From a virus (lineage: Duplodnaviria; Caudoviricetes): a stretch of DNA of 64,000 bases. A program made the position numbers and the translations under genes. The DNA lies in IMG/VR virus record IMGVR_UViG_3300020577_007535, positions 1,401 through 65,400 of that record; one strand, given 5' to 3'. The notes beneath the pieces are model-generated. The model had not been told where the DNA came from. It saw only the letters and a list, made by a program, of their open reading frames with translations, and searched no databases. Positions 9,599 through 40,649 of the stretch are shown here, piece after piece (position 1 is the stretch's first letter; each line of letters begins with the position of its first letter).

Positions 9599-10869
9599 CC
9601 CGAGTCGACATCATCAAGCGCGCCCGCGGGCTGCAGCAGCTGTGCGGCAGCTCCAACCCTCACGAGGCCGCAGCCGCGCGCCAGCACCTGGAGGCGCTCG
9701 AGCGGCACCACAAGCTGACCGATGCCGAGATCCGCGACCCAAACGAGCGGCCCGACCTCGGGCAGCGCCAGGTGGTGCTGGCGGTCGAGTGCCCGCGGCT
9801 CATCGCAGACTTCGTGCTGGCGGTGGTAGGCGCGCTGCGCATCGGCGGCAAACCCTCGGGAGACCACCACATCCTGGTGGCCGGCTCAGAAGCGGAAGCC
9901 GCCGCAGGGGCGCGCCTTGCGCAGCGGGTCACCGCGCTCATCATGAGCGAGACCGAGCGAAGCGCAGAGCGCGCGGTCCGGCAGCGGGGGCACTTTGACG
10001 GGCCGTCCCTGTGGGCGGGCATCGCGAATGGCTTCATCGAGCGGCTGCGGCCGCCGCCGCCACCCGAGCCCAGCGCAGGCAGCGCCCGAGCTGGGGGAAC
10101 GAGCCCAGCGCAGGCAGCGCCCGAGCAGCCACCCGAGCCAGCGCCCGAGGATGTGGTGATGGAGCCAGCCGAGCCAAGCCCCGATGCGCATGCGCTCGTG
10201 CTCTACCGGCCGCAGGCGCGCCAGGCGCCGCACCGCCGCCGGGCCGTCACGATCGCAAGCCCAGCGGACGAAGCGCGGGGGCGGCAGCTCGCGCGCGACT
10301 TCCCGCTTGAGGTAGCCGGAGACCTGGCCGCGCCCGCAGGAGCTGCGCCAGCCGGCGGCGCCGCGGGGCCTTCGCGGTTTGCGCGCGCGCTCGCCTGGCT
10401 GCGCCGGGTCGGCTGCGAGGACAGCAACAACCCGGGTGCGCAGGCCTTTGCCGGGCAAATCTTGGGCGGGGCGGACGAGCGGACCGCGACGGTGAACTAT
10501 GCGATCTGGCTGTGGGGGCAGTGGCGCGAGCTCCGGCTGCAGATCCAAGAGGAGGAACTGCCCGAGTCTGATGCGCTGCTCCGGCCGCACCCGGAGTCGC
10601 CAAACACAGCGATCGTGCTCGCGCAGCAGTCGCAGACCTTCGAGCTGCTGTTGACCTGGTGCGCCGACGTGGGGCCGCGCTGGTGGCAGCTCGACGGCGT
10701 GGCGCGGGCGGAGGTGCAGGAGCGCAAGCGCAAGCAGCAGGAGAGGCGGCAGCAGATGTGGCGAAACGACATCGACGCTGACCCGATGGCCTGGCAGCGC
10801 ATGGTGCAGGAGATCGTCCTAGGGGTGCGCGGGACCGCGGCGCCAGGGAGCCCACGCAGCGGTGGCTGA
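9595..10869 (+). CDS. DUF2786-like protein
   Basis: N-terminal IIKRARGLQQLCGSSNPHEAAAARQHLEALERHHKL matches the DUF2786 pattern; the ATG overlaps the terS stop. Confidence 0.6.
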   Translation: MTRVDIIKRARGLQQLCGSSNPHEAAAARQHLEALERHHKLTDAEIRDPNERPDLGQRQVVLAVECPRLIADFVLAVVGALRIGGKPSGDHHILVAGSEAEAAAGARLAQRVTALIMSETERSAERAVRQRGHFDGPSLWAGIANGFIERLRPPPPPEPSAGSARAGGTSPAQAAPEQPPEPAPEDVVMEPAEPSPDAHALVLYRPQARQAPHRRRAVTIASPADEARGRQLARDFPLEVAGDLAAPAGAAPAGGAAGPSRFARALAWLRRVGCEDSNNPGAQAFAGQILGGADERTATVNYAIWLWGQWRELRLQIQEEELPESDALLRPHPESPNTAIVLAQQSQTFELLLTWCADVGPRWWQLDGVARAEVQERKRKQQERRQQMWRNDIDADPMAWQRMVQEIVLGVRGTAAPGSPRSGG

Positions 10870-12280
10870 TCTCGTTCCGCAAGACGTCGGCACGACGAGC
10901 CTCTATGTCACCGAGGCCCCGCCGAACAGCGTCAAGCTGCACCAGACGTTCACGCCGCTGGATTGGCAGATCGCGCCTTGGCAGGACCGGTCGCTGGTGC
11001 TGCTGCTCACCGGCGCAGCCGGCGGCGGCAAGAGCCAGCTTGCCGGCGAGAAGATCCACGCGCTGGCCATGAAGTACCCGGGCTCGACCTCGCTCATCGT
11101 CCGCAAGGCCCGGGAGTCGATGACCAACGGCACCGTGCCGTTTTTCTCGACGGTGATCATCGGCGATGACCCCAGGGTTCGCATCCTGCCGAGCAAGCAC
11201 CGCTGGGAGTATGCAAACGGCAGCGTCGTCGTCTGGGGCGGCATGTACGACGCCAAGCAGCGGGAGGCGATCCGCTCGATCGGCGTGCGCGGTGGCGTGG
11301 ATTTCGTCTGGATGGAGGAGGCGACCGCCTTCACCGAGGAGGACTTCAACGAGATCCTGATGCGCATGCGCGGCAACATGGCCGGCTGGACGCAGGTGAT
11401 CCTGACGACCAACCCGGATCGCCCGACGCACTGGATCTACCGCCGGCTGATCAAGGGACGGGAGGCCAAGACCTTCTACAGCCGCGCCGCGGACAACAAG
11501 TACAACCCGGCGAGTTACGCGCAGCACCAAGCCAAGCTCACCGGCGCGCAGTACCTGCGCCTGGTCAAGGGGCGGTGGGTCCAGGCCGAGGGCGTTGTGT
11601 ACTCGCAGTGGGACCCGGGCAACCGGGGCGGACACGTCATCCGCCGCTTCGCGATCCCCGAGGACTGGAGACGCATCCGGGCGATCGACTTCGGATTTAC
11701 CAACCCCTTTGTCTGCCTGTGGATCGCGATCGACCACGACGGGCGGATGTACGTCTACCGCGAGATCTACCGCACGCAGCGCCTGGTGGAGGACCACGCC
11801 CGCACCATCAACGCGCTGACGGGCGTGGAGCGAATCGAGGCAACGATCGCCGACCACGACGCCGAGGGGCGCGCGACGCTCAACAAGTACGGCATCGAGA
11901 CGGTGGCAGCCTACAAGGACATCGAGCGCGGGATCGAAGCCCTCAAGGCGCGGATGCTCCGCCAGCCCGACGGCCTGCCGCGCATCTTCTGGTTCGAGGA
12001 TGCCCTGGTGGACCCCGATGAAGCCCTCATCGAGGCAAAGAAGCCTTACTCGGGCCTGCAAGAGTTTGAGTCCTACCGCATGCCCCCCAAGTCGAAGAAC
12101 AACACGGAAAAGGAGCTGCCGATCAACGAGGACAACCACGCGATGGACGCGCTGCGCTACGGCGGCGCCTACGTGGACGGCCTCAAGATCCGGGGCAACC
12201 CCCGCGGCATCATCCTGGCGGCCGGACAGGCGCCGCACCGAAACAAAGACGTAATCGACGCGCTCACTCCGGACTGGTAG
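10862..12280 (+). CDS. terL: Terminase large subunit (PBSX-like)
   Basis: Walker A GAAGGGKS, Walker B WMEEA, LTTNP, and nuclease motifs IDFGFTNP and DNHAMDALRY. Confidence 0.95.
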   Translation: MADLVPQDVGTTSLYVTEAPPNSVKLHQTFTPLDWQIAPWQDRSLVLLLTGAAGGGKSQLAGEKIHALAMKYPGSTSLIVRKARESMTNGTVPFFSTVIIGDDPRVRILPSKHRWEYANGSVVVWGGMYDAKQREAIRSIGVRGGVDFVWMEEATAFTEEDFNEILMRMRGNMAGWTQVILTTNPDRPTHWIYRRLIKGREAKTFYSRAADNKYNPASYAQHQAKLTGAQYLRLVKGRWVQAEGVVYSQWDPGNRGGHVIRRFAIPEDWRRIRAIDFGFTNPFVCLWIAIDHDGRMYVYREIYRTQRLVEDHARTINALTGVERIEATIADHDAEGRATLNKYGIETVAAYKDIERGIEALKARMLRQPDGLPRIFWFEDALVDPDEALIEAKKPYSGLQEFESYRMPPKSKNNTEKELPINEDNHAMDALRYGGAYVDGLKIRGNPRGIILAAGQAPHRNKDVIDALTPDW

Positions 12281-12286
12281 CAGGCG

Positions 12287-12772
12287 ATGAAATCCGACAA
12301 GCCCCGCCGCCGCGTGCGGCTCCTCGTGCCGCGCCCCCCTGTCGCCACCACGCGCCACCACGCCGAAGGAGTAGGCGCACCGTTCGATGGCGTGCAGGGC
12401 CATGCCGGCGGCGAGCAACTCTGGGCGTACGGCTACCTCGACGTGGCTCACTTAAAGGGCGTCGAGCCTGGCTCGGTCCGCCGGGCGGTGCTGCGCGGGC
12501 AGGTCATGATGGGGGACCTGCTGAGCGTGGCGCGCTACGTCTACAGCCGCAGCATCTGCCGCTGCTGCGAGCGGCCCATCCTCCCCCCGCCGGGGTCACC
12601 GCCCGAGCCGGAGGAGCTCCAGAGCTTCGAGCCGAGCGGGCCGCCGCGCCCCCAGCCGACTCCGCCGACCGAGACGGAGCGGTATTGCATGATGTGTTGG
12701 GATGACGCCGCGGATCGTCTGACGTGCCTGCGGCCGGGCTGCGCATGCGCATGCCACGCACCGAAAAAGTAA
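12287..12772 (+). CDS. Hypothetical protein with Cys pairs
   Basis: ORF directly after TerL with CRCC, CMMC and CACAC motifs. Confidence 0.55.
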   Translation: MKSDKPRRRVRLLVPRPPVATTRHHAEGVGAPFDGVQGHAGGEQLWAYGYLDVAHLKGVEPGSVRRAVLRGQVMMGDLLSVARYVYSRSICRCCERPILPPPGSPPEPEELQSFEPSGPPRPQPTPPTETERYCMMCWDDAADRLTCLRPGCACACHAPKK

Positions 12773-12775
12773 GTT

Positions 12776-12799
12776 GATGGCAAAAAAGATCTTGCTATC
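12776..12799. promoter_or_regulatory. Palindromic operator, copy 1 (GATGGCAA-N8-TTGCTATC), overlapping a likely -35
   Basis: Imperfect inverted repeat also present at 17438 and 51007. TTGCTA-17 nt-CATCAA lies upstream of the ATG at 12828. Confidence 0.75.
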
Positions 12800-12827
12800 G
12801 CATAAGTCGTAGGGCATCAATTGACCC

Positions 12828-13103
12828 ATGACGAACGCGACGCATCACCCCGCGAATCAACCCCGGTTCGCGGCGCGTCGTGCTCCCAGCCAAAGGATCT
12901 CGAACATGTACTTCCTGCGCGTCATCGAAAGCCAGTCGACCAACCCCAAAATCTTCCCCTGCAACGCAGAGTCCCTTCGTGGCGCGCGTAAAGAGGCAAA
13001 TAAGTTCCTCGGCGGCTGCCACATCGGCAGTGGTCGCGTCGAGATCTACGACAAGGACCCGCGCAAGGTGGAGAGCGATCCCGTCGTCACGCTCAGTGCC
13101 TAG
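12828..13103 (+). CDS. Hypothetical protein
   Basis: First ORF downstream of operator copy 1. Confidence 0.55.
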   Translation: MTNATHHPANQPRFAARRAPSQRISNMYFLRVIESQSTNPKIFPCNAESLRGARKEANKFLGGCHIGSGRVEIYDKDPRKVESDPVVTLSA

Positions 13104-13220
13104 ACGCAGACCTAGGACCCCCTTGAAGCGTTCGAGCGGCGCGCCGCTCGTCCTATCCCCTGCCGCGGTGTGGGGCTCCATTGGGCGCACTCACGCGCCA
13201 ACTTTCACAAGGGGATACCG

Positions 13221-13640
13221 ATGCTGACCATGAAAGAAATTGCCGAGCAAACAATGGAAGACCTCAAAGCGCGCATTCATGCTGCTGTCACCAGCGCGGC
13301 AAGCGCAACCGAGGTAGCGGCCGAGCTGCGCGATACGGTCCGGATGGCGCTCGCGGCCAAGATGGGCAAGGGCGTGCTGCTGCGCGACCGCAACACTGAC
13401 GAGGCGGTACCGGCCGATGGGTTCGCGGTGTTCGAGCAGTGGGCCGTCAGTGATAGCGACTCGGTGACGTGGTACCCGACCGATGGGCAGGCGCTGGCTC
13501 ACCTGCACGAGCTGGGCATGCGGCATCACCGCCAGGTCGAGATCATGGACCAGGGCCGCGCCCAGGTCGATCTGACCGCGGACGGGTGCAACATGTCGCG
13601 GGCCTACTACGTGCGGGTCAAGAAAGGCCAGCAGCTGTAA
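13221..13640 (+). CDS. Hypothetical protein
   Basis: SD-like AAGGGGA precedes the ATG at 13221; coding-like sequence. Confidence 0.6.
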   Translation: MLTMKEIAEQTMEDLKARIHAAVTSAASATEVAAELRDTVRMALAAKMGKGVLLRDRNTDEAVPADGFAVFEQWAVSDSDSVTWYPTDGQALAHLHELGMRHHRQVEIMDQGRAQVDLTADGCNMSRAYYVRVKKGQQL

Positions 13641-13668
13641 GGCGAACAGCCGGGGAGACCCGGCACAA

Positions 13669-13782
13669 GGGGCCGTGGTGTAGGGAACGAGCCGCAGCGA
13701 GGCGTACGACGGACTGCGAGGATGTCCCAGGAAGCACACAGCGGTGATGCTTATGGTGCGGGTTCAACTCCCGCCGGCTCCA
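13669..13782 (+). ncRNA. tmRNA/tRNA-Ala-like mini-RNA (tRNA-like domain without an mRNA-like domain)
   Basis: 5' GGGGCCG pairs with 3' CGGCTCC-A, giving G3:U70 and discriminator A. The T-arm GCGGG-TTCAACT-CCCGC is the tmRNA-type 3' end. It is intergenic and 114 nt long, with no encoded CCA. Confidence 0.7.
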
Positions 13783-13801
13783 TCTACCGGGAGGACCATC
13801 A

Positions 13802-14134
13802 ATGAAGACCGAAAAGAAGGGCATGACGTTCCGAGACCTCAAGGCAGCTATCGGCGAAATGGATGAAGCGCAACTCGATCTGCGCGTTCTCTGGGCCGGG
13901 GACGAGCGCGGCGGGGTGGTTCATATGCTCGATATCCTCAAAGAGGACCACATCAATCCGTCTGGGGAATGCTGGGAACCGCGCAGCGTGTACCTGGACC
14001 CGATCAAAGAGAAGATCAAGAACTTCGAGGGAACACCGGAAGAGCTGGCCGACCTACAGGCCGAGCTTGAGGACTACGAATCGGAGCCCGTTGTCGGCGT
14101 CAAGGGACAGGGCGTTCTGGCTGTCGATCTGTAG
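13802..14134 (+). CDS. Hypothetical acidic protein
   Basis: GGAGG SD; coding-like sequence. Confidence 0.65.
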   Translation: MKTEKKGMTFRDLKAAIGEMDEAQLDLRVLWAGDERGGVVHMLDILKEDHINPSGECWEPRSVYLDPIKEKIKNFEGTPEELADLQAELEDYESEPVVGVKGQGVLAVDL

Positions 14135-14144
14135 CGGCAAGACC

Positions 14145-14486
14145 ATGGGCCTGCTCAAGTTCCTATCCAGCCTGGGATCATCGTTTAAGCGAGGCACCCA
14201 GGCTGGCTACGCCGAAGCCGTAAGCGCCTCGCGTCCATCGACTGCGCCGCTGCTGCCTGCGGATGCCGTAGGGCCGCATGCAGACCCCGCGTTCATCGCA
14301 GCCGAGAAGCAGATGCGCTTTGAGGTGACCTGGTGCGCGCATGTCTCGGTCTACACGGCGCTGACGATGTGGGAAGTGCATGCCTTCTGGTTCGTTCCGA
14401 GCGGGAAGAACCGCAGCCTGACGCTCTGCAAGCTGCGAGCTGCTGGGTTCGGCCCGTTCCCGGACGAGCTCTACCCCAAGAACTGA
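14145..14486 (+). CDS. Hypothetical protein
   Basis: ATG at 14145 (MGLLKFLSSLG) in operon order. Confidence 0.5.
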   Translation: MGLLKFLSSLGSSFKRGTQAGYAEAVSASRPSTAPLLPADAVGPHADPAFIAAEKQMRFEVTWCAHVSVYTALTMWEVHAFWFVPSGKNRSLTLCKLRAAGFGPFPDELYPKN

Positions 14487-14496
14487 GGAGACCCCA

Positions 14497-14889
14497 GTGA
14501 ACATCAAGGTCAGCTACGCATCGATCCGGATCGGAGGCGGCATCTTGCCGATCGAGTCAATCGCGTACTCGGAAAAAGTATCAAAAGGCGAGTTGTGCGG
14601 CGCGAGTCCGAAGCCGCTTGGCAAGTCCACCGGCGACTATAGGGCATCGGGCTCGATCATCGCAGGAGTGAAGAACCAGAACCCGCTTGCGCGAGACGGC
14701 GAAGTCCAGGTGAGCGAAATCAAGCTGCAGGTGCGTTGCATCAAGCGGCGGTTCGTTCCGACCGTGCGCGGCCCCGTCATCAACCGCCTGCGCAAGTACA
14801 TCCGGCGCAACGGCAACCTGATGTCGGTCCGCACCCGCGGCCGGACGGGCTACCGCACGGTCGAGGAAGCCACGGAGGCCGCGTCGTGA
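14497..14889 (+). CDS. Tail-tube paralogue (N-terminal about 60 aa homologous to 40131-40649)
   Basis: IESIAYSEKVSKGELCGASPKPLGKSTGDYRASGS aligns without gaps to IISLNFEDGVERGYARGASRMKLGRTAGDYDATAS (14/35 identical); GAGGAG SD. Confidence 0.7.
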   Translation: MNIKVSYASIRIGGGILPIESIAYSEKVSKGELCGASPKPLGKSTGDYRASGSIIAGVKNQNPLARDGEVQVSEIKLQVRCIKRRFVPTVRGPVINRLRKYIRRNGNLMSVRTRGRTGYRTVEEATEAAS

Positions 14890-15518
14890 GCCAGAAAGCA
14901 GACGCCGCCGCGGCTCTGGTCGGAGCGGGCGCCAGGCGCAAGGCCATGCGCGAGGGACTGGTGACAGGCGCCAAGGTCTACGGTCACGAGCAGCTCACCC
15001 CCAAGGGCTTGCAGTTCGCGCTGCTCCACTTGGCAGAGGTGCTCGTGCACACAAAGGCTGCCTCGCTGGCTGGTCCGCTTGGCGTGGCCGCTGACTTCGT
15101 GGGGCGCAACAAGAAGGCGCCGGACTTCAGCGTGTCTTCGCTCGCCGCGCCGAGCCAGGCCGAGCCGCCCATCGCAGGCACTTGGCTGGAGCTCGCAGCT
15201 CGGGTCGCGCTTGGCCAGATCCCGGGCGCCACAGTGCGCGTCCGCTGCGCCACCAAGGCCGAGTCCGCGACGTTCCAAGGCGTCGGCGCAGACTCGCTGC
15301 GCATTCAGGTGATGGCCGATGGGCCGGATACTGAGTGCGAGCCGTTCTGGGCCAGCGCGCAGGAGTGGGCCGCCGCGCTCCAGCAGGCGATGAAAGGATC
15401 GAGCCATGCGGCACCGAAAGAAGTCACTCCCGCAGCCCCCGCCCCCGTTCAGCGAGTCGGCCGGAAGCCTGGCCAAACTGCGCGAGCACGAGGAGCCGCA
15501 GCCTCAGCGAGAAATTGA
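14886..15518 (+). CDS. Hypothetical protein
   Basis: The GTG start overlaps the upstream stop. Confidence 0.55.
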   Translation: MSQKADAAAALVGAGARRKAMREGLVTGAKVYGHEQLTPKGLQFALLHLAEVLVHTKAASLAGPLGVAADFVGRNKKAPDFSVSSLAAPSQAEPPIAGTWLELAARVALGQIPGATVRVRCATKAESATFQGVGADSLRIQVMADGPDTECEPFWASAQEWAAALQQAMKGSSHAAPKEVTPAAPAPVQRVGRKPGQTARARGAAASARN

Positions 15519-15641
15519 GCAGAGGGACGGGCACCGCTCGCCCTCGTTTGCAATGCACCACGACGACAGCGGCTGCGCCGAGTATCGCGACGAGAGCGAG
15601 CCGGGGTCGCTATTCGACCGGCCTGGACGAAAGGACAGACG

Positions 15642-16211
15642 ATGACGCGTCGAGCAGCTATCGAAGGGAAGTGGAAGGCCGCGGAGCGGGCGTTACCAAA
15701 GACGCCTGCGCCGCGCGGGCATGCTGGCATCGGTCAGCGGCTCCTGATGGCGCGTGTTCGAGCTCGGATGAGCCAGCGCGAGCTCGGTCGCAAGATCGAC
15801 ATCTCGACGCAGACCATCATCCGCTGGGAGCGCGGTCTGTGCTGGCCCGATGTGCGCGACCTGGATCGCATTGCCGCGGCCCTGGGAATTCCCGCCGTGA
15901 TTCTGACTGGATGGTCGGAAGCGGCGAACTGGGTCCCCCAGGAGGGCGGCGGCTACTGGCTCGGCTGCCCGCAGTGCAAGCCCGAGCTCGGCCAGATCCG
16001 CCTGCCCTACGGGGTCAAGGGAGACGGCCCCTTCGCTTCGACGTACGCCCCGCCGAGTCTGTACGTGGCGAGCTTCAACCCGCAGGGCGCTGCGGGCGTG
16101 CGCGCTGAGAACGGCCGCATGCTCGGGATCAAGCCGAGCGAGTTCATCTGGCTCTATCCCGTCCCCCCGTATGACCGCTGGTGCCAGGGCGCCGGTGGAA
16201 TCCATCGCTAG
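15642..16211 (+). CDS. XRE/Cro-CI HTH transcriptional regulator with an extra C-terminal domain
   Basis: RLLMARVRARMSQRELGRKIDISTQTIIRWERGLCWPDVRDLDRIAAALGI. Confidence 0.85.
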   Translation: MTRRAAIEGKWKAAERALPKTPAPRGHAGIGQRLLMARVRARMSQRELGRKIDISTQTIIRWERGLCWPDVRDLDRIAAALGIPAVILTGWSEAANWVPQEGGGYWLGCPQCKPELGQIRLPYGVKGDGPFASTYAPPSLYVASFNPQGAAGVRAENGRMLGIKPSEFIWLYPVPPYDRWCQGAGGIHR

Positions 16212-16223
16212 TTCGAGGTCAAC

Positions 16224-16724
16224 ATGAGCACGCACGAGTGGATGAAGTTGTTAGGCGTTCCCACGGCACCCCAGTTGAAGGTATTGGAACAGCTTCAAGG
16301 CACCGAGTGGCCCCGTGGTCTGATTGACATAGTGGGTGGCCCAGGCTCTGGACGCAGCACCACGTTGGCAATGTGTGCAGTTTGGGGGCTCATCAACGCC
16401 AAGACCGTTGGCATTCTGTGTCCAATGGGAACGGCGCCTCCGGCCGGCGGTTTGGTCAGCATTATCGCCAAACATTTCCCCCTGGCCGCAGGTCGAACGC
16501 TGTGTGAAGCAGTGACCTTGAACGGAGCCGGAAGGATTTGGCTTCTGCACGGAGATGAAGAGGGAATCGATCTGCTCCTCGCCGATACCGAGGCCGTGCC
16601 TTTCTTGCCAATCCCCAGCAAGGCAGGCCTGGCTATTGCTGCGGTCGGCTCGCTCAAGGAGCACGAGGCGCTTTCTGCGCGCTGGTGCGCAGTGGCAGTG
16701 GACCAGCCGGTGCTGCTGCTATGA
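16224..16724 (+). CDS. Degenerate P-loop-like protein
   Basis: IDIVGGPGSGRSTTL is a Walker A with Arg in place of Lys; locally AT-richer. Confidence 0.5.
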   Translation: MSTHEWMKLLGVPTAPQLKVLEQLQGTEWPRGLIDIVGGPGSGRSTTLAMCAVWGLINAKTVGILCPMGTAPPAGGLVSIIAKHFPLAAGRTLCEAVTLNGAGRIWLLHGDEEGIDLLLADTEAVPFLPIPSKAGLAIAAVGSLKEHEALSARWCAVAVDQPVLLL

Positions 16725-17434
16725 ATTCCGGCGATAGTTGCCTGGTGCTCCCCACCGGCAAGGGCAACAAGCGCCGCACCGCGGTCGTGCTCGAGTCCTG
16801 CGACAAGAGCTGCAAGGTCAAGTTCGATGACGACGACAGCGAGGAACGGGTGAGCTGCACCAAACTGCGCCCGCTGGGTCGGCCCAAGGCCGCGCCGCCG
16901 CCGGCCGAGTCTCCGGCTGAACCGATCCGCTGGCGCACCGGGCCGCTGCCGCCCGCTGGCTCAGATGGTCAGCCGGCCAAGGCGGGGCCGCAGCCCAAGC
17001 CCGAGCCGCCCGCGCGGTCCGAGGCTTACAAGGCGTTCATCCGGCGCCAGCCCTGCTGCAACTGCGCCCGCGACGGCCTGGTGAGCGAGGGCCTCTCGGA
17101 CCCCGACCATGAAGGCCCCCGCGGCGTCGGTCAGAAGACCTCAGACTTTCTGACGATCCCGCTCTGCCGCCCGTGCCACCGCATCATCACCGACACGTAT
17201 TGCCTGCCCGCGGCGTATTCCAGGCTCTGGGCCAAGCCCATCCTCGAGACCCGGGCCTGGACCGAGGTGTTTATCCAGATGACCCAGGCCGAGCTGCTGC
17301 AGCGGGTGCTGAGCAGTCTGGAGCTGGGCGATAGGCTCAAGGCGCTCGAAGTGGCCGTGCGCACCCTGGATAGCAAAGTCTTGGCCGCGGCGCTTATCGA
17401 TATGACGGGCGCGGACTCTGAGCAGAAAAAGTGA
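16721..17434 (+). CDS. SH3/Tudor-like domain fused to a DUF968-like Zn/HNH-type domain
   Basis: N-terminal SCLVLP...AVVLESCDKSCKVKFDD beta-barrel pattern; C-terminal YKAFIRRQPCCNC...DPDH...QKTSDFLTIPLCRPCH. Confidence 0.6.
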   Translation: MNSGDSCLVLPTGKGNKRRTAVVLESCDKSCKVKFDDDDSEERVSCTKLRPLGRPKAAPPPAESPAEPIRWRTGPLPPAGSDGQPAKAGPQPKPEPPARSEAYKAFIRRQPCCNCARDGLVSEGLSDPDHEGPRGVGQKTSDFLTIPLCRPCHRIITDTYCLPAAYSRLWAKPILETRAWTEVFIQMTQAELLQRVLSSLELGDRLKALEVAVRTLDSKVLAAALIDMTGADSEQKK

Positions 17435-17437
17435 AGC

Positions 17438-17461
17438 GATATCAAAAATAATCTTGCTATC
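17438..17461. promoter_or_regulatory. Palindromic operator, copy 2 (GATATCAA-N8-TTGCTATC)
   Basis: Extends to GCGATATCAA...TTGCTATCGC; intergenic, upstream of 17491. Confidence 0.75.
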
Positions 17462-17490
17462 GCTTCAGCCGCAGGAGTAAGAGGTTGGCA

Positions 17491-18297
17491 ATGGCAAATC
17501 AATCAAGCACTCCCATGGTCTTGGACATGCGCCGCAAGGGATTCCTGCCGCGGCTCAGCGTCGCCCCGGTGCTGCGGAGCAGTGCCATCGACGCGGAAAC
17601 AAACCGCCTCCGTCAAAAGTTCTGGGCCTCGCAGCAGGACACGCCGACTTGGGAGGTAGACCAGGCCGGTGTGGTCAGCGCGGTCCCGGCGCCCGCTGTC
17701 CCCGAGGTGCTGTGCACCATGGCTGATGTCTTGCAGCACGCCACCCGCGGCGTCCGGGTCTGCGAGGTGTGCGGCTGGGGCGTCCCCGAGATCATGGTGT
17801 GGAACGAGCCGTGCCCGCACTGCCTGCGGCCGATGTATCACCGCCCCCGCCGCGAGCCGCTTGGCGTCTACGAGTCCGGCGGACCCACCTGCGCCAAGCC
17901 CGGGCGGCAGTGGCTGACGCGCGCCCCGCTGCCCTGGGAGAGCAACCCCTATATCCGGTACCGCCAGTGGGAGCGCCCGATCTACCTGTGCGAGGTGAGC
18001 CCGGTGGAGTGGCCCCCGGGGTGGGGATACATCACCGCACGGTGGAAGCTGCGCATCGAGGGCGATGCCGAGGTCTTTGCAGCGCTCGGGGAGTTCTGGC
18101 GCGGCCGGCCGGAGCGCTGCGCCCGTTGCAAGGCGCGGGGGATGAACTGCCCGCACACGCTGCGGCGCCGCCGGCTGCTACCGGGCTGGCGCTGGAGCCG
18201 GGGCATCGACTTTGCGGAGCGCGCGTCGATGTACATTACCTGGCGAGATAGCTCGCTTGACTCCGTGGTCGTTGCAGACGGGGGCGCCGATGTCTAA
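17491..18297 (+). CDS. Zn-finger-containing hypothetical protein
   Basis: CEVC...CPHC and CARC...CPH; first gene after operator copy 2. Confidence 0.6.
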   Translation: MANQSSTPMVLDMRRKGFLPRLSVAPVLRSSAIDAETNRLRQKFWASQQDTPTWEVDQAGVVSAVPAPAVPEVLCTMADVLQHATRGVRVCEVCGWGVPEIMVWNEPCPHCLRPMYHRPRREPLGVYESGGPTCAKPGRQWLTRAPLPWESNPYIRYRQWERPIYLCEVSPVEWPPGWGYITARWKLRIEGDAEVFAALGEFWRGRPERCARCKARGMNCPHTLRRRRLLPGWRWSRGIDFAERASMYITWRDSSLDSVVVADGGADV

Positions 18298-18859
18298 CGC
18301 CGAAGGCCCTCCGATGTTTCGCGTGCACTCAGACGGCAGCATTGACGCGCCATCCCGCGAAGCCGCGATGCAGGTTCATCACGAGCTCGCAAAGGGCGAA
18401 CTGGCGCAGCTGCGAAGCCAGGTGATTGACCTGCGGGCGCAGCATCAGGCCGTGCTGGACGAGTTGCCCGGCTGCGCAACTCTTGAGGACGTGCGCCAGG
18501 CAATCCGGCAGCTCCGGCTATCGGGTGGGGATGAGGCGCTGCGCATCGAACTGCGGTACCAGCGCGCCCGGGCGCAGGAGCTGGCCGAGGAGTGCTTTGG
18601 ACATTCTGAGCGAAGAGGCGTTGCTGTGTGCTCACGAGCACATCCGGAATCCTCAGCCCGAGCCACCATCGGAGTGCGAGATCATCATCGCTCTGGCGAT
18701 GTACATCGGCAACCTCTTCGAACGCGCCCGCGCCAAGGACCCATGCGCGTCAGCACAGCAGCAACCCTGCGAGCCGCACACGGCGGCGCCCGCAACGTAC
18801 CTGGCGTGGCATGTGTGGGCCGAGAAGATGTCCAAGACCCATCGGCAGCGCCGGTGTAA
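18290..18859 (+). CDS. Coiled-coil hypothetical protein (3' part overlaps the next ORF)
   Basis: The ATG overlaps the upstream stop; heptad-rich N-terminal half. Confidence 0.45.
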   Translation: MSNAEGPPMFRVHSDGSIDAPSREAAMQVHHELAKGELAQLRSQVIDLRAQHQAVLDELPGCATLEDVRQAIRQLRLSGGDEALRIELRYQRARAQELAEECFGHSERRGVAVCSRAHPESSARATIGVRDHHRSGDVHRQPLRTRPRQGPMRVSTAATLRAAHGGARNVPGVACVGREDVQDPSAAPV

Positions 18860-18929
18860 GGGCTGCGGCCTGTACGTCATCTGGGAGCCGAAACCCGGCA
18901 TCGCTCCTCCTGCCAAGGAACCATCATGA
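18597..18929 (+). CDS. Small phage Zn-ribbon protein
   Basis: TTG start after GAGGAG; PATYLAWHVWAEKMSKTHRQRRCKGCGLYVIW resembles a recurrent phage motif. Confidence 0.5.
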   Translation: MDILSEEALLCAHEHIRNPQPEPPSECEIIIALAMYIGNLFERARAKDPCASAQQQPCEPHTAAPATYLAWHVWAEKMSKTHRQRRCKGCGLYVIWEPKPGIAPPAKEPS

Positions 18930-19258
18930 CCACCCCAGCACAGAAGCCGCCGGAGCCGGCCGCGCACGTTGACTGCGATGACGTGATCGACCCCGAGCGC
19001 ACGACCGACGAGCAGCTAAAGGACTTCATCCAGATCACCCGCGCCGACGGCCGGGCCTACATCATCCACGCCGAGGACTACAAGAGGCTGCAAGAGGACG
19101 GCCTGGTGGGAACGATCCGGCTGCGGTCGATCGATGGCTTCTGGCTCGACGTCGTGCGCACCAGTGACGGGACGGTCTACTTTCCCAACGCCCTGCACAA
19201 CAACCGCGGGGAGACCCGCCCGGCCCCGTACTACGTCCCAGCGGACAAAGGAGCTTGA
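18926..19258 (+). CDS. Hypothetical protein
   Basis: ATGA overlap; AAGGA SD. Confidence 0.6.
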   Translation: MTTPAQKPPEPAAHVDCDDVIDPERTTDEQLKDFIQITRADGRAYIIHAEDYKRLQEDGLVGTIRLRSIDGFWLDVVRTSDGTVYFPNALHNNRGETRPAPYYVPADKGA

Positions 19259-19260
19259 CC

Positions 19261-19467
19261 GTGGATCACTTCAACGAGAGCCAGCGCCGCCGGGAAGAGG
19301 AGCGGACGCGGGAGCAGATCCGGCAGCTCGAATACGACCTCTCGGAGCGCGACCGGCAGATCCGGACGCTGGAGACGGCCAACCAGCAGAACCGGGAGGT
19401 CATCGAGGAGCAGGGGCGCCGCATCGAGGAGCTGGAGCAGCAGCTAAAGGAGCTTGAAAACCAATGA
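19261..19467 (+). CDS. Small coiled-coil protein
   Basis: AAGGAG SD before the GTG; E/Q/R-rich heptads. Confidence 0.6.
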   Translation: MDHFNESQRRREEERTREQIRQLEYDLSERDRQIRTLETANQQNREVIEEQGRRIEELEQQLKELENQ

Positions 19468-19943
19468 TCCCCAAGCACAAGACCGAGCTGGACGAGCAGA
19501 GCTACACCCTGGGCGAGCGGGCGCAGCTCCTGAAGATGTTCCGGCACTTCCTGCACGAGTTCGCGCTGAGCGCGCAGCTGGCCCCGTCAGATGATCCCGT
19601 GCTTGACCTGGCGACCCGGCTTGCGCGGGCGGAGGTCGAGCTGCGGGAAGTCCGCGCCAAGCTGCGGCGGCTGTGCCGGGAGCACGGCGATAACTCCTGG
19701 GATGACGAGCTGTGCTTGCCGGACGTCATTGAAAAGCACCTGGTCAACCCGCTGCTGGACCGTGCGTCGACGCCTCAGCCCGTCGACGCGTCGACGCCCA
19801 AAGAGGAGCCGCTGATCGTGCTGGCCAAGCCGCCGGAGACCGATCTCAACCCGACGGGCGAGAGCTTCCAGTATGCCGACGATCCGGGCGAGACCGAGAT
19901 CCACAGCGACGTGTGGGCTATCACCACGCCGGACAAGACATGA
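19464..19943 (+). CDS. Hypothetical protein
   Basis: ATGA overlap; coding-like sequence. Confidence 0.6.
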   Translation: MIPKHKTELDEQSYTLGERAQLLKMFRHFLHEFALSAQLAPSDDPVLDLATRLARAEVELREVRAKLRRLCREHGDNSWDDELCLPDVIEKHLVNPLLDRASTPQPVDASTPKEEPLIVLAKPPETDLNPTGESFQYADDPGETEIHSDVWAITTPDKT

Positions 19944-20131
19944 GCAGCGCGAAGAAAGACATCAGCCTGCTGATCAGCAAGATCGAAGGCGTCGAGCAGG
20001 CCAGCCCGCTCGATCCGAACGTCTCTATGGCGCTCACCGCGCGCGGTTTTCTCAACCTGAAGGCGTGCCGGCTGTTCTTGGCTCAGGCCCGGATCTTTGC
20101 CGAGCTGGCGCGCGAAGAAGCGGGGGACTGA
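19940..20131 (+). CDS. Small hypothetical protein
   Basis: ATGA overlap. Confidence 0.5.
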   Translation: MSSAKKDISLLISKIEGVEQASPLDPNVSMALTARGFLNLKACRLFLAQARIFAELAREEAGD

Positions 20132-20135
20132 CTCC

Positions 20136-20435
20136 ATGACCGCATCCCGAGACTTCAAAAAACTGGTCCGCGCCCGGATGAAAGACACGGGCGAAAACTA
20201 CACCACGGCGCGCGCGGCGCTGCTCAAGACCAAGACCGCGCCGCGCGTCCTCAGCGGGGATGAGGTCAAGCAGGAGGTCGCCAAGATCTGCGCCTTCCAG
20301 GACCTTGTGCTTGATAGGAAGCCACCGGCCGAGGCGTTCGCCATGTCCCAGCAGAGCCCGCGCCGGTTCCTGTCTCCTGCTCTGGCTGCTGATCTCCGGC
20401 TGGAGACGCTTGTGCCAGAAAGCAAAAAACAGTGA
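20136..20435 (+). CDS. Small basic protein
   Basis: N-terminal DFKKLVRARMKDTGENYTTAR, a motif recurrent in GC-rich bacteria. Confidence 0.6.
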   Translation: MTASRDFKKLVRARMKDTGENYTTARAALLKTKTAPRVLSGDEVKQEVAKICAFQDLVLDRKPPAEAFAMSQQSPRRFLSPALAADLRLETLVPESKKQ

Positions 20436-20460
20436 GCCTCCCGCCCTACACCGTTGATTT

Positions 20461-21150
20461 TTGGGCCGGTATGACGTCGGCATTCTTCATTCTTGGCTGG
20501 CAGAAGATTGTGCCGACTCGCGCGATGTGCTGGACCTTCGCGGCGATCACGGCTCTGCTGATGCGGTGTCAACACTCATGAGGCGCACCCGCCGCGTTCC
20601 CTGCCTGCCGCAGGTCGAGATGATCAAGGCCGTCGAGCTCCTGGATGACATCTACAGGAGCGAAGGCGCCGGCTGCTGCATGCACATCGTCACGGACGAT
20701 CTGAACCTCAAAGACAGCGACATCCAGTTTTGCCTCGAACAGGCAGTCCCGGATGGCTGCGAGAAATGCGAGCGCCTCGCCCGCTGGATGCTCCGGATGA
20801 GCGCCACCCAGCGCCACAAACTCTGCACGGGCGGCTACGCCCGGATGATGGAGGTGGTCCAGGCGGAGCGCAAGCGCAGGATCTGCAAGGGTCTGGGCGT
20901 GAAACTCGACCCCTACGGCTTCCCGGTGAATCCGCTGCTGCCGCAGGACCGGTCGATCGTCAACAAGCACCCCGAGGGATTCCTCGGCCGCAGGACGGAC
21001 GGCAAGTCAGGCCGGGCGCTCCAGGACGAGCTGGTGAAGTACAGCCGCTTCCAGGCTCTGGTGCTACGCGGCAAGCCCAAGGCCGAAGCCTATGCCGAGG
21101 TCTATGGCGAAGTGCTGTTTGATGCGACCACAGAGGAGCCATCTTCATGA
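20461..21150 (+). CDS. Hypothetical protein (start uncertain)
   Basis: GAGCCMHIVTDDLNLKDSDIQFC...CEKCERLA, followed by a basic C-terminal region. Confidence 0.55.
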   Translation: MGRYDVGILHSWLAEDCADSRDVLDLRGDHGSADAVSTLMRRTRRVPCLPQVEMIKAVELLDDIYRSEGAGCCMHIVTDDLNLKDSDIQFCLEQAVPDGCEKCERLARWMLRMSATQRHKLCTGGYARMMEVVQAERKRRICKGLGVKLDPYGFPVNPLLPQDRSIVNKHPEGFLGRRTDGKSGRALQDELVKYSRFQALVLRGKPKAEAYAEVYGEVLFDATTEEPSS

Positions 21151-21485
21151 CGGACGAGGCCAAGGAACGTAAAGAGGGCGCACCGGTCGGCACCGAAAAG
21201 GAAGCCGACTCGAAGCCGCCCATCACCATCAACATCCCGGTCCCCGCGTTCTACGTCTGCGGGCTCATCGGGGCGATGCTGATCTACTTGAAGGCCACCG
21301 GGCAGACGAATCTTTCCTGGTTCTGGGTCCTGTCGCCGATGCTGTGGCCGTTCTACCTCATGGCAAGCGCGGTCTGCATTGCCGCCGCACTCGGGACCTG
21401 CGCGCTCATTGTGTACGGGCTGTTTTCCTTGGTGGTGTGGGTGCGCGAGAGGCAAGAGCGGCGGCGGCGGCGGAACCGGAAATGA
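21147..21485 (+). CDS. Phage membrane protein
   Basis: YLKATGQTNLSWFWVLSPMLWP plus flanking transmembrane helices; GAGGAG SD. Confidence 0.65.
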   Translation: MTDEAKERKEGAPVGTEKEADSKPPITINIPVPAFYVCGLIGAMLIYLKATGQTNLSWFWVLSPMLWPFYLMASAVCIAAALGTCALIVYGLFSLVVWVRERQERRRRRNRK

Positions 21486-21670
21486 AGCGCTGCCAACGGT
21501 GTATTTCCTCTCCTCGCCCGGGCTGGCTGATCGATGGCACGTTCTATCGCCGCTGCTCTCTGTGCAACGGCAGCGGAATGGACCCAGAAGAGATCGAGTT
21601 GCAAAAACGCGAGTCCCAGGCCTGGCTTGACTTGTATCGAGCGCAGTTTCGTCAGGGGATCTTTCGATGA
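21482..21670 (+). CDS. Small Zn-finger protein
   Basis: CQRC...CSLCNGSG (DnaJ-type CxxCxGxG). Confidence 0.55.
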   Translation: MKRCQRCISSPRPGWLIDGTFYRRCSLCNGSGMDPEEIELQKRESQAWLDLYRAQFRQGIFR

Positions 21671-22062
21671 AACCGTTGCCCACCGCTGCGCCGCCCGAGC
21701 TGCCGCCTTATCGCGGACCGTCTGCCTTGAACGAAATCTTCTGGCTGGTGCTCCGCCCGCTCCTGCTCATCGCGCTTTGCTTGCTGATGTGCTGGCTCGG
21801 CGGGCTTCGTTTTGACGTCCAACCACAAGCAGCAGGAGAGGGAGTCCGGACCATGCAGGAGTGCAAGATCATCGCCGCGTGGAGCGAGGACATCGAATAC
21901 GACGAAACCCGCGTGAACGATCTGCTCGCCCAGGGATACCGGATCGAGCACGTCATCCAGCCGCTGCTGATCCAGGACGGCGAGGCGCGAGCTGCGCGGC
22001 TGATTCTGGTTCGCGAGAAGCCACCCAGTGGCAAGCCCCCACCGACTCCCAGCCCGAGCTAG
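21667..22062 (+). CDS. Membrane-anchored hypothetical protein
   Basis: Hydrophobic FWLVLRPLLLIALCLLMCWLGG. An internal SD (GGAGAGGGAG) before MQECK suggests it may be two genes. Confidence 0.45.
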   Translation: MKPLPTAAPPELPPYRGPSALNEIFWLVLRPLLLIALCLLMCWLGGLRFDVQPQAAGEGVRTMQECKIIAAWSEDIEYDETRVNDLLAQGYRIEHVIQPLLIQDGEARAARLILVREKPPSGKPPPTPSPS

Positions 22063-22065
22063 AGC

Positions 22066-22401
22066 ATGTCCAGGATTCAGAACCGGCGCCATAAGGTGCG
22101 CAAGCTCAGGGAGCGGGATGGCGACTTCTGCCGCATCTGCGGGCGCCGGCTCAACTTCGAGATCACCGAACCGAAAAACTGGGCGCTGCCGACCATCGAC
22201 CACATCAAGCCGCGGTCCAAGGGCGGCCAGAACGACCTTGGAAATCTTCGACTCGTCCACGCCAAGTGCAACGGCGTGCGAGGGAATCTGCCCGCCGAGT
22301 ACTTCACCACGCACCGGCCAGCGCGCCCCGAGCCGCCGTTAGCAAAGAGCCCCGCAGGCCCCGGAGTGGTGAGCGGCGATCGATGGGTCGATCGCGAGTA
22401 G
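22066..22401 (+). CDS. HNH endonuclease
   Basis: CRICG...TIDHIKPRSKGGQNDLGNLRLVHAKCN. Confidence 0.9.
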   Translation: MSRIQNRRHKVRKLRERDGDFCRICGRRLNFEITEPKNWALPTIDHIKPRSKGGQNDLGNLRLVHAKCNGVRGNLPAEYFTTHRPARPEPPLAKSPAGPGVVSGDRWVDRE

Positions 22402-22452
22402 ATGCGGCCGGCCGGAACTATTGACCGTCACAGCAAACCACAGGAGGAAAAC

Positions 22453-22674
22453 ATGCGAACGTTAGTTTTATTGGTTATTCTCGGCGTTTCGTTTGACGCC
22501 ATAGCCCGTGAGGTTCGCTGCGGAACGGCTTGCGCGGCCAATGAGGAGTCGTTCTCCGGATATGACTGCGCTCCGCAGCCAATATCGGAGAGCCCATTGG
22601 ATGCGAATGACTGCAAAGAGCGTTGCTATTGCGTGCCCGCAGAGAAACAAAAAAAGAAGACGAAAAAGAAATAG
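22453..22674 (+). CDS. Small secreted Cys-rich peptide
   Basis: AGGAGG SD; signal peptide MRTLVLLVILGVSFDAIA; six Cys; Lys-rich tail. Confidence 0.6.
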   Translation: MRTLVLLVILGVSFDAIAREVRCGTACAANEESFSGYDCAPQPISESPLDANDCKERCYCVPAEKQKKKTKKK

Positions 22675-22696
22675 GCCACGGCAGCAATAGTACTGC

Positions 22697-22745
22697 TTGG
22701 CGTGTCAAAATCGCGCACGTATCAATCGTAACTAACCAAAGGAGG
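22697..22745 (+). promoter_or_regulatory. Candidate sigma70-type promoter and SD for 22752
   Basis: TTGGCG-17 nt-TATCAA, then AAAGGAGG, in an AT-rich gap. Confidence 0.45.
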
Positions 22746-22751
22746 TATCTG

Positions 22752-23105: not shown

Positions 23106-23281
23106 CTGATATATGGCGCTGCGGCTCCTGGTCGATCGCGTTCCCGCCCTGGTGGCCGGACCTTGACCATCACAGCAAAACCGGGGTAGGTACATCCTCG
23201 GCCCCCGCGTCAAAACCCCGCCAGCTCTCCGCCCGAGGCTACGCGGGTATGGCGTGGGGGCCATCTGAGGAGCCCGCCCAC

Positions 23282-24758: not shown

Positions 24759-24791
24759 CCCCCGCGCCGGCCGGCGCTGTATGATGCCGGC

Positions 24792-25607: not shown

Positions 25608-25646
25608 CGCTGGCCTCGGGATAGCCCGGGGCGCTACTCTGCGCAC

Positions 25647-37939: not shown

Positions 37940-38346
37940 CCCAGCGCCGACAGCTCTCGGAGCACATCACCAAATACGAACAGGACAAGCGTCCTGCGTG
38001 GATCTTGGCCGCGGCGCAGCACCAGCAGGCCTGGCACCGGCTGCCGTTTGCGCACCCCGCGCTCGACCTGACCGAAGAGGAGTTCGAGCGCGCGCTATCG
38101 CTCGCCGAGCACCACTCGCCCGGGCAGCCGATCGAGCTCGTGCGTCCGGTCAAGCTCGCGCTCGAAGAGCACGAGGGCGCCGCGCGCGCTGAGTCGGAGC
38201 GCAACGAGCAGGCGCTTGCCGCCCGCGCCAAGGCCGAAAAGGATGCAGCTGCCGCAGCTGCCGCAGCTGCCGCAGCTGCGCCTGCGCCCGCCCCTGTCTC
38301 GGACTCCGATCCCACCGCCCATGAAAACGAGGAGCACGGTCGATGA
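37936..38346 (+). CDS. Small pre-sheath protein with a poly-Ala tract
   Basis: WILAAAQ...DLTEEEFERAL; (GCAGCTGCC)n repeat near 38245-38280. Confidence 0.6.
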   Translation: MTQRRQLSEHITKYEQDKRPAWILAAAQHQQAWHRLPFAHPALDLTEEEFERALSLAEHHSPGQPIELVRPVKLALEEHEGAARAESERNEQALAARAKAEKDAAAAAAAAAAAAPAPAPVSDSDPTAHENEEHGR

Positions 38347-40115
38347 GCATCGTCCCCTATCAGTCAGCAGTGGTCGTTGATGGCGGCCTGGGCATCCCGG
38401 CCACCACGCCCGATCAGCTGCACGCCAAGATCGGCGTCAGCTCGGGCGGGCCGCGCAACACCCCTGTCTATGTCCCCGACCTCGCCACGCTCGTCAGCGT
38501 CTTTGAGGGCGGCCCCCTCGTGCGCGCTGGCGCCTACCACCTCAAGCAGACCGGCGGCTTTTGGGCCGTGCGGACCGCGACGAGCAACAACGGAACGCTG
38601 TCCTCGGTCACCAAGCAGCCGAACGGCGTGGACACCGGGACGCTCGCGATCGCGCTGTCCATCTTCACGATCCACGCGTCCGCCCCGGCCGGCGCGGCGC
38701 TCAACCTGACCTCGGGCTTCACCGACTTCCCCATCCCGGGCAAGCTCAAGATCGCGCTGGCCTCGCCGGGCGTTGCGACCACGTACGTCGTGCAGGGCGT
38801 GGACATCTACGGCAACACCGTGAGCGAGAACGTCGCGCTGCTCGTCGGTCCGAGCAATGCGACCTCGGTCAACGAGTACCAGCGGATCATCTCGATCACC
38901 ACGGCCGCCAACCCCGAGGGCGTGAGCACCTTCACGTCGGAGTCCGGCACGCCGATCGACCAGTTCGAGGCGATCGTCGAGGTCATGGTGGCCGGCTCGG
39001 TCGCCGCGGGCTCGATGCAGTACCGCTACAGCCTGGACAACGGGCGGACCTACAGCCCGACCCTGGTGGTCCCGGTCAACGGCGTCGTGGACCTTCAGAC
39101 CTACACCTCGGGGAGCTCGAACCCGTACCTCGGGTTCAAGATGACGTTCACCGATGGTGCGGGGCCGAACTACTTCAACGTCGGCACCAAGTATACCTTC
39201 ACCACGACGGCCCCGAGCTGGAGCGGCGGCGCGCTCATCACCGGCATGCAGGCGATGACGAGCAACCGCGATATCGCGAACCTGTTCAGCGGTTACCACG
39301 CGGTCGGCCCGGCCGACGGGACGATCTTCGTCTCGGTGGACAGCCAGCTGGAGAGCGACGCCAGCCAGCAGATCCTCTACAAGTTCGCCTACCTCGAAGC
39401 GGTCCGCATGGGCAACACCGCTGAGGCGACCTGGGCGGCGAACCTCATCACCGACTACGCGACCCGCAGCGTCCGCGTCGGCGTCGTCGCGGCCGACATG
39501 AACATGGAGAATCCGGCCTACGGCACCTACGACCGCTGCAACGCCGGCGCGGTGTACATGGGGCGCCTGATGGCGTGCCCTATCTCCGAGAGCCCCGCGC
39601 ACGTCAAGTGCGAGACGGTCTTCGGCTCCAAGACGTCGCTGCCGGGCGTCACCAAGCTGTACCAGACGATGACCTCCATCGTGCCGCTGACGGGCGCCAA
39701 CTTCGTCACCATGCGCCAGTTCACCACGCGCACCGGGTACTACGTCACCAAGGGCATCCTCAAGGCGCAGGAGACCTCGGATTTCAAAGAGATCACCAAC
39801 CGGCGCGTCATGGACGTCGCCCTGGTCATCGGCTACGACGTGCTGCTCGACTACCTGCAGGGCTCACCGCTGACCGACCCAGCGACGGGGCGGCTCGACG
39901 GGTCCACCGCGAACAAGATCGCGCAGGACGTGACCGCCAAGGAGCGCGCGCGCCTGCTCGGCGGCGGTCGGCAGCATGCCTCAGGGCTGCTCGTGCAGGT
40001 CGATGATACCCGCGACTTCCAGCGGGAGCGGACCCTGTACGGGACGATCAGCCTCGTGCCGCGCGGCATGGTCGACGCGATCATCAGCACCTTCCAGTAC
40101 GTGGCCACGCTGTAA
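38343..40115 (+). CDS. Tail sheath protein (DUF2586-like)
   Basis: 590 aa; SDFKEITNRRVMDVAL and GTISLVPRG C-terminal sheath motifs. Confidence 0.85.
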   Translation: MSIVPYQSAVVVDGGLGIPATTPDQLHAKIGVSSGGPRNTPVYVPDLATLVSVFEGGPLVRAGAYHLKQTGGFWAVRTATSNNGTLSSVTKQPNGVDTGTLAIALSIFTIHASAPAGAALNLTSGFTDFPIPGKLKIALASPGVATTYVVQGVDIYGNTVSENVALLVGPSNATSVNEYQRIISITTAANPEGVSTFTSESGTPIDQFEAIVEVMVAGSVAAGSMQYRYSLDNGRTYSPTLVVPVNGVVDLQTYTSGSSNPYLGFKMTFTDGAGPNYFNVGTKYTFTTTAPSWSGGALITGMQAMTSNRDIANLFSGYHAVGPADGTIFVSVDSQLESDASQQILYKFAYLEAVRMGNTAEATWAANLITDYATRSVRVGVVAADMNMENPAYGTYDRCNAGAVYMGRLMACPISESPAHVKCETVFGSKTSLPGVTKLYQTMTSIVPLTGANFVTMRQFTTRTGYYVTKGILKAQETSDFKEITNRRVMDVALVIGYDVLLDYLQGSPLTDPATGRLDGSTANKIAQDVTAKERARLLGGGRQHASGLLVQVDDTRDFQRERTLYGTISLVPRGMVDAIISTFQYVATL

Positions 40116-40130
40116 GAAAGGGATTCTCAG

Positions 40131-40649
40131 ATGCCCGTCATTGTTCCTTTCGTGCCGTATCCCAGGATCAACGGCAAATACTTCCAGTTCAGCTCGATCC
40201 GCTTCCACATCAACGGCGTCGAGTTCACCGACATCATCTCGCTCAACTTCGAGGATGGCGTCGAGCGCGGGTATGCGCGCGGCGCGAGCCGCATGAAGCT
40301 CGGACGGACCGCGGGCGACTACGATGCCACGGCGAGCTTTGACATCTGGACGACCAAGCTCGATGACTTCCTCAACATCGTGGACCCCGGCCGCCGGGGC
40401 TTCTACGACATCGAGGGCCTGGACGTCTCGGCGGACTTTGCCGAGCCGAACATGCCGCTGCAGACCGTCTCGCTCATCGGGCCGATCATCAACAAGATCT
40501 CCGACGCGCACAGCCAGGGCACCGAGCCGCTGAAGAACACCATCACGCTCGACATCTACGGCGTGCTGCGCAACGGTCGGCCCCCGATCGAGGGCATCGA
40601 CTTTGGCGCCGGCGCCGCGGGTGCTCCGCTGGTCCAGCAGAGCGTCTAG
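40131..40649 (+). CDS. Tail tube protein
   Basis: Directly after the sheath; FSSIRF...RGASRMKLGRTAGDYDATASF. Confidence 0.8.
   Translation: MPVIVPFVPYPRINGKYFQFSSIRFHINGVEFTDIISLNFEDGVERGYARGASRMKLGRTAGDYDATASFDIWTTKLDDFLNIVDPGRRGFYDIEGLDVSADFAEPNMPLQTVSLIGPIINKISDAHSQGTEPLKNTITLDIYGVLRNGRPPIEGIDFGAGAAGAPLVQQSV

Follow-up and report, generated by a model that had tools for sequence, protein, structure and literature searches.

The stretch of DNA considered here (the window, 64,000 nucleotides) makes up nearly all of a 65.4-kb IMG/VR record with a CheckV completeness of 69%, and its source is an uncultured, high-GC, Mu-like myophage. Terminase and portal genes are normally adjacent in Mu-like phages; in the window, ~13 kb of accessory genes (12287-25607) lie between the large terminase and the Mu-type portal (Table 1), and among them are an HTH regulator, a DUF968/HNH-like gene and a tmRNA-like RNA. 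The open reading frame at 14497-14889 (hereafter the ORF) belongs to this block and is a genuine accessory gene. Its Shine-Dalgarno sequence overlaps the TGA stop of the upstream gene (14484-14486), its own stop overlaps the GTG of the downstream gene at 14886, and its GC3 of 0.83 is sustained at 0.75-0.93 along the entire frame, the basic C-terminus included. No second copy of its family was found in the phage.

Table 1. Coordinates of the features discussed in the text, as positions in the window.
Feature	Position	Strand	Remarks
Large terminase	10862-12280		phrog_2, 4.4e-34
AT-rich 51-nt element, copy 1 of 3	12763..12813	+	GATnGCAA...TTGCTATC palindrome; from repeat search
Shine-Dalgarno GAGGAG	14485..14490	+	6 nt 5' of GTG; read from sequence
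CDS of the ORF	14497..14889	+	130 aa, GTG start, pI 10.5, net charge +14
Tube-like segment, residues 5-54	14509..14658	+	Aligned to tube residues 18-70
Residues 55-100, possible further tube homology	14659..14796	+	GPVINR opposite tube GPIINK; not significant alone
Arg-rich hairpin, residues 96-120	14782..14856	+	Family-defining; followed by short C-terminal helix, residues 122-129
Mu-type portal	25647-27431
Mu-like I protein	29400-31304
Tail sheath gene	38343..40115	+	Pfam DUF2586 5.5e-25; phrog_907 'tail sheath' 9.5e-21
Tail tube gene, XkdM type	40131..40649	+	172 aa, pI 4.8; directly 3' of sheath gene

An earlier note on this DNA, made from the sequence alone, had placed the ORF, with its own Shine-Dalgarno sequence, in an 'operator-1' operon, and both elements are present: the GAGGAG precedes the start codon and an AT-rich 51-nt element heads the block. 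Two other copies of this element occur (17425-17475 and 50994-51044), and each of the three heads a gene block, namely that of the ORF, the block next to it and a lipoprotein pair, in a genome that is otherwise high-GC. The element is probably a shared operator or promoter. A promoter/terminator scan of 12200-18600 gave no informative signal. The tmRNA family match lies 700 nt upstream of the ORF (13669-13785, plus strand), with 37.9 bits against a gathering threshold of 47 and an E value of 3.3e-12.

The tail genes of the phage lie well downstream, in a module that appears complete from neck to baseplate and syntenic with that of Mx4. We accept the gene at 40131-40649 as the phage's tail tube, as the earlier note had assumed when it placed the real tube gene 25 kb from the ORF. 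In addition to its adjacency to the sheath gene, it has a match to phrog_4579 'tail protein' (6e-6) and is 36% identical to Mx4_p56, which comes after the Mx4 sheath, and 33% identical to the 'XkdM' of the Meiothermus phage MMP7. No relatives of this tube were found in IMG/VR. The ORF is not beside the sheath, being 25 kb upstream of it.

The starting point for a connection between the two proteins was a 35-residue ungapped block with 14 identities, including GAS..LG...GDY.A..S, and that description proved exact: residues 19-53 of the ORF align with residues 35-69 of the tube. Not one of 2000 shuffles reached 14 identities in a 35-residue block, the maximum being 12. BLASTP of the ORF against the tube gave 18/53 identities with a pairwise E value of 1e-5, and the Smith-Waterman score was 66, with a shuffle mean of 27.7 and a Gumbel p of 1e-5. 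In an all-against-all BLASTP of 72 window proteins, the ORF/tube pair ties with three other unexplained non-paralogous pairs (E 0.001-0.003), so it is the profile tests, and not BLASTP, that carry the claim of homology. Unexplained similarity within the genome was recorded between 14145-14486 and 29400-31304 (40% over 35 aa, E 0.003), and between 20097-20435 and 20461-21150 (50% over 30 aa, E 0.001).

For the profile tests we built a tube profile from five tubes, including Mx4_p56 and the MMP7 'XkdM', without the ORF. The HMM-HMM comparison, which the earlier note had named as a check on its alignment, was significant: hhalign matched residues 5-100 of the ORF to tube residues 18-125 over 96 columns with a probability of 95% and an E value of 2e-8. 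The score of 52.9 compares with 24.1 for the next-best among 70 other window proteins, and with a mean of 11.9 and a maximum of 18.6 for 200 shuffles. HMMER with the same profile detected the ORF at E 1.5e-8. In the reverse direction, among 1326 six-frame ORFs, a profile of the ORF's family with the ORF included (the family is described below) retrieved the tubes of Meiothermus and Mx4, with E values of 1.2e-4 and 6e-3, respectively. The alignment register was identical in all comparisons. Only residues ~5-55 are significant alone; residues 58-130 score 15.7 against the tube profile, with a probability of 1%. As far as comparison of sequences can establish it, homology with the N-terminal region of XkdM-type contractile-tail tubes, the resident tube included, covers the first ~55 residues of the ORF and perhaps reaches ~100 residues.

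What the ORF shares with the tubes, and what it does not, can be stated by region. Tube residues 18-70, which we read as a strand, a long hairpin and a strand of the tube fold, are represented in the ORF by a segment that retains most of the Gly/Ser/Ala positions invariant in the tube alignment. The region opposite tube residues ~71-84, which we take to be a flanking helix of the fold, is shortened by a gap. The invariant H127, S128, G130 and T131 of the C-terminal HSxGT region of the tubes are absent, and an Arg-rich hairpin takes the place of that region. With the 71-84 stretch shortened, the HSxGT region missing and residues 58-130 at background, the ORF is not a complete tube domain. The acidic charge of the tube is inverted, from -6 (pI 4.8) to +14 (pI 10.5). 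Recent gene conversion from the resident tube was considered and rejected, as the DNA of the shared block is only 53/105 identical.

The hairpin has turned out to be the most conserved part of the protein. The earlier note had called this region an unrelated basic C-terminus and the whole a truncated tube subunit, and neither description held. An exhaustive phmmer search found eight proteins that match ORF residues ~86-129 at 50-60% identity, and a profile search enlarged this family from eight to 27 proteins, all metagenomic. They share the motif RLRK[FY]..R.G.L..VR.RGRTG.R, with invariant columns at R97, L98, R99, K100, R112, R114, G115, R116, T117 and G118 (ORF numbering), and nine invariant positions fall within 24 residues of proteins otherwise ~30% identical. 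The ORF has all of the invariant columns; at two that are nearly invariant it carries Y in place of F and S in place of E. A family profile built without the ORF aligned to it over 120 columns (residues 8-129) with an hhalign probability of 98.9% and an E value of 2.4e-17, from which it follows that the ORF is a whole, short, full-length member of the family rather than a fragment of a tube with filler attached.

The family varies considerably in length. The ORF is one of its short members and the most tube-like. In members of 99-112 aa the tube-like part is mostly or entirely missing and little is left beyond the hairpin half, and long members have CxxC...CxxC extensions at either end. No match to Pfam, PHROG, NCBIfam or PADLOC was obtained with the ORF or family members, nor did a PADLOC 2.0 scan of the ORF give one, and nothing usable came from searching PDB sequences with the ORF, with the tube or with either profile. 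No family member was found by motif scans of IMG/VR and 185,579 species genomes, or by a six-frame HMM search of five IMG/VR terminase relatives, the 6.4-kb Mx4 tube region and a Meiothermus prophage. On these sequence comparisons, the ORF belongs to an undescribed, phage-restricted family with a near-invariant cationic beta-hairpin and a short helix after it.

A number of candidate members and relationships were rejected in the course of defining the family. The hits of P0005 and P0014, long tandem-repeat surface proteins, were spurious sums of many weak repeat matches, and that of P0008 arose from a near-perfect tandem repeat. A few members matched Portal_Mu over one 30-residue stretch at E 0.0045, which fails the cut-off, and BLASTP against the window's portal gave no match. 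The R.RK of the family presumably resembles SmpB. An SmpB-like partner of the tmRNA-like RNA was rejected because it has no profile support (with the ORF and eight other members of alignment A1, no Pfam match to the SmpB profile at E values up to 1) and because there is no tRNA-like gene in five related loci.

Across the family, the tube signal is much fainter than in the ORF. The family profile without the ORF aligned to the tube profile in the same register with an hhalign probability of 58% and an E value of 1e-4, and five single members scored 21.7-28.0 against the tube profile, exceeding the shuffle maximum; most members were at background. In the tube HMM search family members rank immediately behind the ORF, and the tube's LGRTAGDY corresponds to LGPTAGDY in the orthologue at locus L006. 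Among the ESM-atlas feature hits of the member P0021, three tail-tube families were the only named ones (score 0.78, a lead only), and an ESM atlas search with the ORF gave nothing usable. Taken together, these comparisons point weakly to a tube derivation of the whole family.

The structure model of the ORF is poor (pLDDT 55), with hairpin strands and helix at pLDDT 78-87. That of the family relative P0013 reached pLDDT 74.5, with two strands and a helix at 87-95. A wide structure search with the P0013 model returned phage-tail or injection-system entries in four of 12 rows (9lbn_M, 9cb9_B, 9b45_M and 6j0b_a), all weak (Z 2.0-2.4, rmsd 4.3-7.0 over 81-91 residues). E values in Foldseek searches of PDB and BFVD with the same model were never below 0.19, and the best Z in three VIA searches was 2.4. 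No nucleic-acid-binding family or fold was matched in Pfam, PHROGs, NCBIfam, PDB sequences or the structure searches.

Comparison of orthologues revealed how the two halves of the protein evolve. The earlier note had suggested dN/dS as a check for neutral decay, and the two close orthologues available, at L005 and L006, are under purifying selection (dN/dS 0.23), with 0.27 in the N-terminal part and 0.14 in the rest. The synonymous divergence between them is 0.75 in the tube-like N-terminal 60 codons (L005:5250-5430) and 0.24 in the remainder, a ~3-fold excess that suggests the tube-like segment has been exchanged between phages or has a separate recombination history. In the alignment of L005:5250-6032 with L006:802-1641, the L005 copy loses frame just past a CDVC motif, by either a frameshift or an assembly error, and is therefore without the Cys-rich, zinc-ribbon-like C-terminal extension that is kept in L006, P0021 and P0024.

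Two phages whose tubes are 79% identical to the resident tube each appear to carry a family member, as the longest contig is 51,565 bases for both P0024 and P0003, and a contig of 36,960 bases is indicated for both the L005 member and P0004. The family members of those phages are only ~30% identical to the ORF, and the tube-like hairpin motif, invariant in their tubes, varies in their family proteins.

The accessory-gene context downstream of the terminase was inspected in the window, L005 and L003. Both in the window and in L005 the family gene comes after the large terminase, the terminase end in L005 being confirmed at 55% identity; in L003 an upstream fragment resembles the terminase C-terminus by eye only, and a neighbouring ORF reads by eye like a DNA cytosine methyltransferase. 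The position of the gene is not fixed, since in L005 an unrelated 140-aa ORF occupies the equivalent slot and the family gene is further downstream. In the five IMG/VR phages with related terminases the gene is absent. Twister-sister ribozymes (RF02681, gathering threshold 34) were identified at L005:5159-5231 (plus strand, 43.4 bits), directly upstream of the family gene, and at L006:278-350 (plus strand, 39.5 bits), one ORF upstream of it; the window had no RF02681 match in 10000-27000. Directly upstream of the L005 ribozyme is a 360-aa gene (L005:4075-5157, plus strand) which by eye has a DUF1874/B116-type N-terminus followed by a nucleotidyltransferase-like part.

The explanation that we favour, tentatively, is that the ORF is a tube-derived scaffold bearing a predicted polyanion-binding hairpin, whose ligand is most likely nucleic acid; its function is one we infer from the pattern of conservation and the setting of the gene. 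A tube-derived beta domain would have been recruited as a scaffold for docking or oligomerisation, the invariant Arg/Gly hairpin would be the working part that binds a polyanion, most likely DNA or RNA, and such binding would fit a protein of the terminase-portal accessory block that acts in regulation or handles nucleic acid. Polyanion binding is favoured because selection concentrates on the cationic hairpin, because the hairpin half is found independently of the tube-like part and because zinc-ribbon-like extensions recur. That the hairpin is the working part is supported by its invariant positions, by the hairpin-only short members and by its lower dN/dS. The leaning towards nucleic acid comes from the charge of the ORF, the CxxC...CxxC extensions, the HTH and DUF968/HNH-like neighbours, the methyltransferase-like ORF of L003, and the structured RNA genes just upstream (tmRNA-like here, twister-sister in L005 and L006). 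The evidence from context is circumstantial, being drawn from five loci of which two are closely related. An acidic protein surface would suit a basic hairpin equally well, and the rival ligand is the acidic end or lumen of a tail tube.

Such a ligand would fit the idea with which the earlier note began, that of a protein that caps or poisons tail tubes, which we consider unlikely. Here the tube-like hairpin would dock on a growing tube or hexamer, and the missing helix and cationic hairpin would stop stacking or plug the acidic lumen, so that the tails of competing phages, tailocins or T6SS would be blocked, or the phage's own tail assembly timed. The homology covers tube residues 18-70, which, from contractile-tail tube structures, we expect to make inter-subunit contacts. 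The ORF and tube are oppositely charged, the AT-rich control element is common to the ORF's block and the lipoprotein pair, and the tube-like segment evolves faster and looks exchanged, as a specificity module might. Proteins that stop tail assembly by other phages are also known from prophages and satellites, Tab (tail assembly blocker) acting on the tape measure (PMC10884400) and Tai (tail assembly inhibition) on the central tail fibre (PMC11364771). These accessory proteins have the function that had been proposed for the ORF. However, neither is described as a structural mimic or reported to be a copy of a structural protein, whereas the ORF carries a tube-derived part and tail blocking by it is putative. 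The idea loses some ground because selection is focused on the basic hairpin, and not on the tube contact elements, and because the tube-like hairpin does not track the near-invariant tubes of the phages that carry it. Furthermore, most members are barely tube-like, some have no tube-like part, and IMG/VR phages with related terminases do without the gene. By extension, the family as a whole could be a new class of structural-mimic assembly inhibitors, in which an exchangeable tube-derived module would target the tubes of competing phages, tailocins or T6SS and the hairpin would cap or plug them, a putative role that we regard as rather unlikely.

The possibility that the ORF is a minor virion component or assembly factor encoded outside the tail module, for example an additional tube-fold protein serving as another terminator or initiator, or else a basic protein that accompanies the DNA, appears improbable. 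Capping or initiation of tubes by tube-fold paralogues is standard among tailed phages, and the gene shares its strand with the structural genes and is located between terminase and portal. Known capping paralogues include the terminators gpU of lambda and gp3 of T4 and the initiators gp48 and gp54 of T4, and the ORF is like them in concept only, that of a divergent tube-fold protein capable of occupying the end of a tube. Their genes are in the tail module, essential and conserved in position; the ORF is outside a tail module that already appears complete, the position of its gene varies, and essential virion parts are rarely so sporadic among related phages.

It is very improbable that the ORF is an anti-defence decoy, whose tube-like surface would putatively occupy a tube-sensing host immune sensor, such as DSR2, without activating it. 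Tube proteins do trigger immunity and phages do carry sensor inhibitors, as DSR2 and DSAD1 illustrate (PMC10981675, PMC11087589), and an accessory gene of variable position with a fast-evolving N-terminal part would be in keeping with such a role. However, nothing links the gene to a sensor (the PADLOC scans, which gave no match, hold models of defence and not of anti-defence), and a decoy leaves the invariant Arg-rich hairpin and the members without a tube-like part unexplained. The least probable reading is that the tube resemblance is convergent or due to chance, a generic Gly/Ser/Ala-rich beta-hairpin pattern, as might be argued from the short significant segment of ~50 residues, the background scores of most members, the other BLASTP pairs at similar E values and the low Z of the structural matches to tube chains; against it stand the hhalign score of the ORF relative to shuffles and to the other window proteins, its detection by HMMER with a profile that excludes it, the retrieval of two tubes in the reverse search and the single register throughout.

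The scaffold and hairpin reading that we favour can be set against known tube proteins. With XkdM/DUF2001-type tubes the ORF shares the region of tube residues 18-70 and most of its invariant Gly/Ser/Ala positions, at a profile E value of 2e-8. It is unlike them in length (130 versus ~150-172 aa), in its shortened 71-84 stretch and replaced HSxGT region, in being basic rather than acidic and in its place in an accessory block 25 kb from the sheath and tube genes, and its family is separate from them in that the tube-like part is optional. The 'evolved' Hcp proteins of T6SS are secreted tube subunits with C-terminal extension domains that carry toxins. The ORF resembles them in combining a putative tube-fold domain with a C-terminal module of different function, but the appended part is a 35-residue cationic hairpin and there is no T6SS context.

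The feature is real, its family is undescribed, and it is a variation on the tube-fold theme. If we have read the homology correctly, a clade of uncultured myophages maintains, under selection, an accessory gene made from a copy of a core virion building block that was shortened, inverted in charge and fused to a new, extremely conserved basic hairpin. Pfam, PHROGs, NCBIfam and PADLOC contain no model of the family, and its nine invariant hairpin residues offer a sharp experimental handle. If the target is the tail tube, subunit mimicry would join the known ways of blocking virion assembly, as a counterfeit-subunit defence, a mechanism that has not been reported for either Tab or Tai. If nucleic acid is the target, the family would be an example of a tube fold reused outside the virion.
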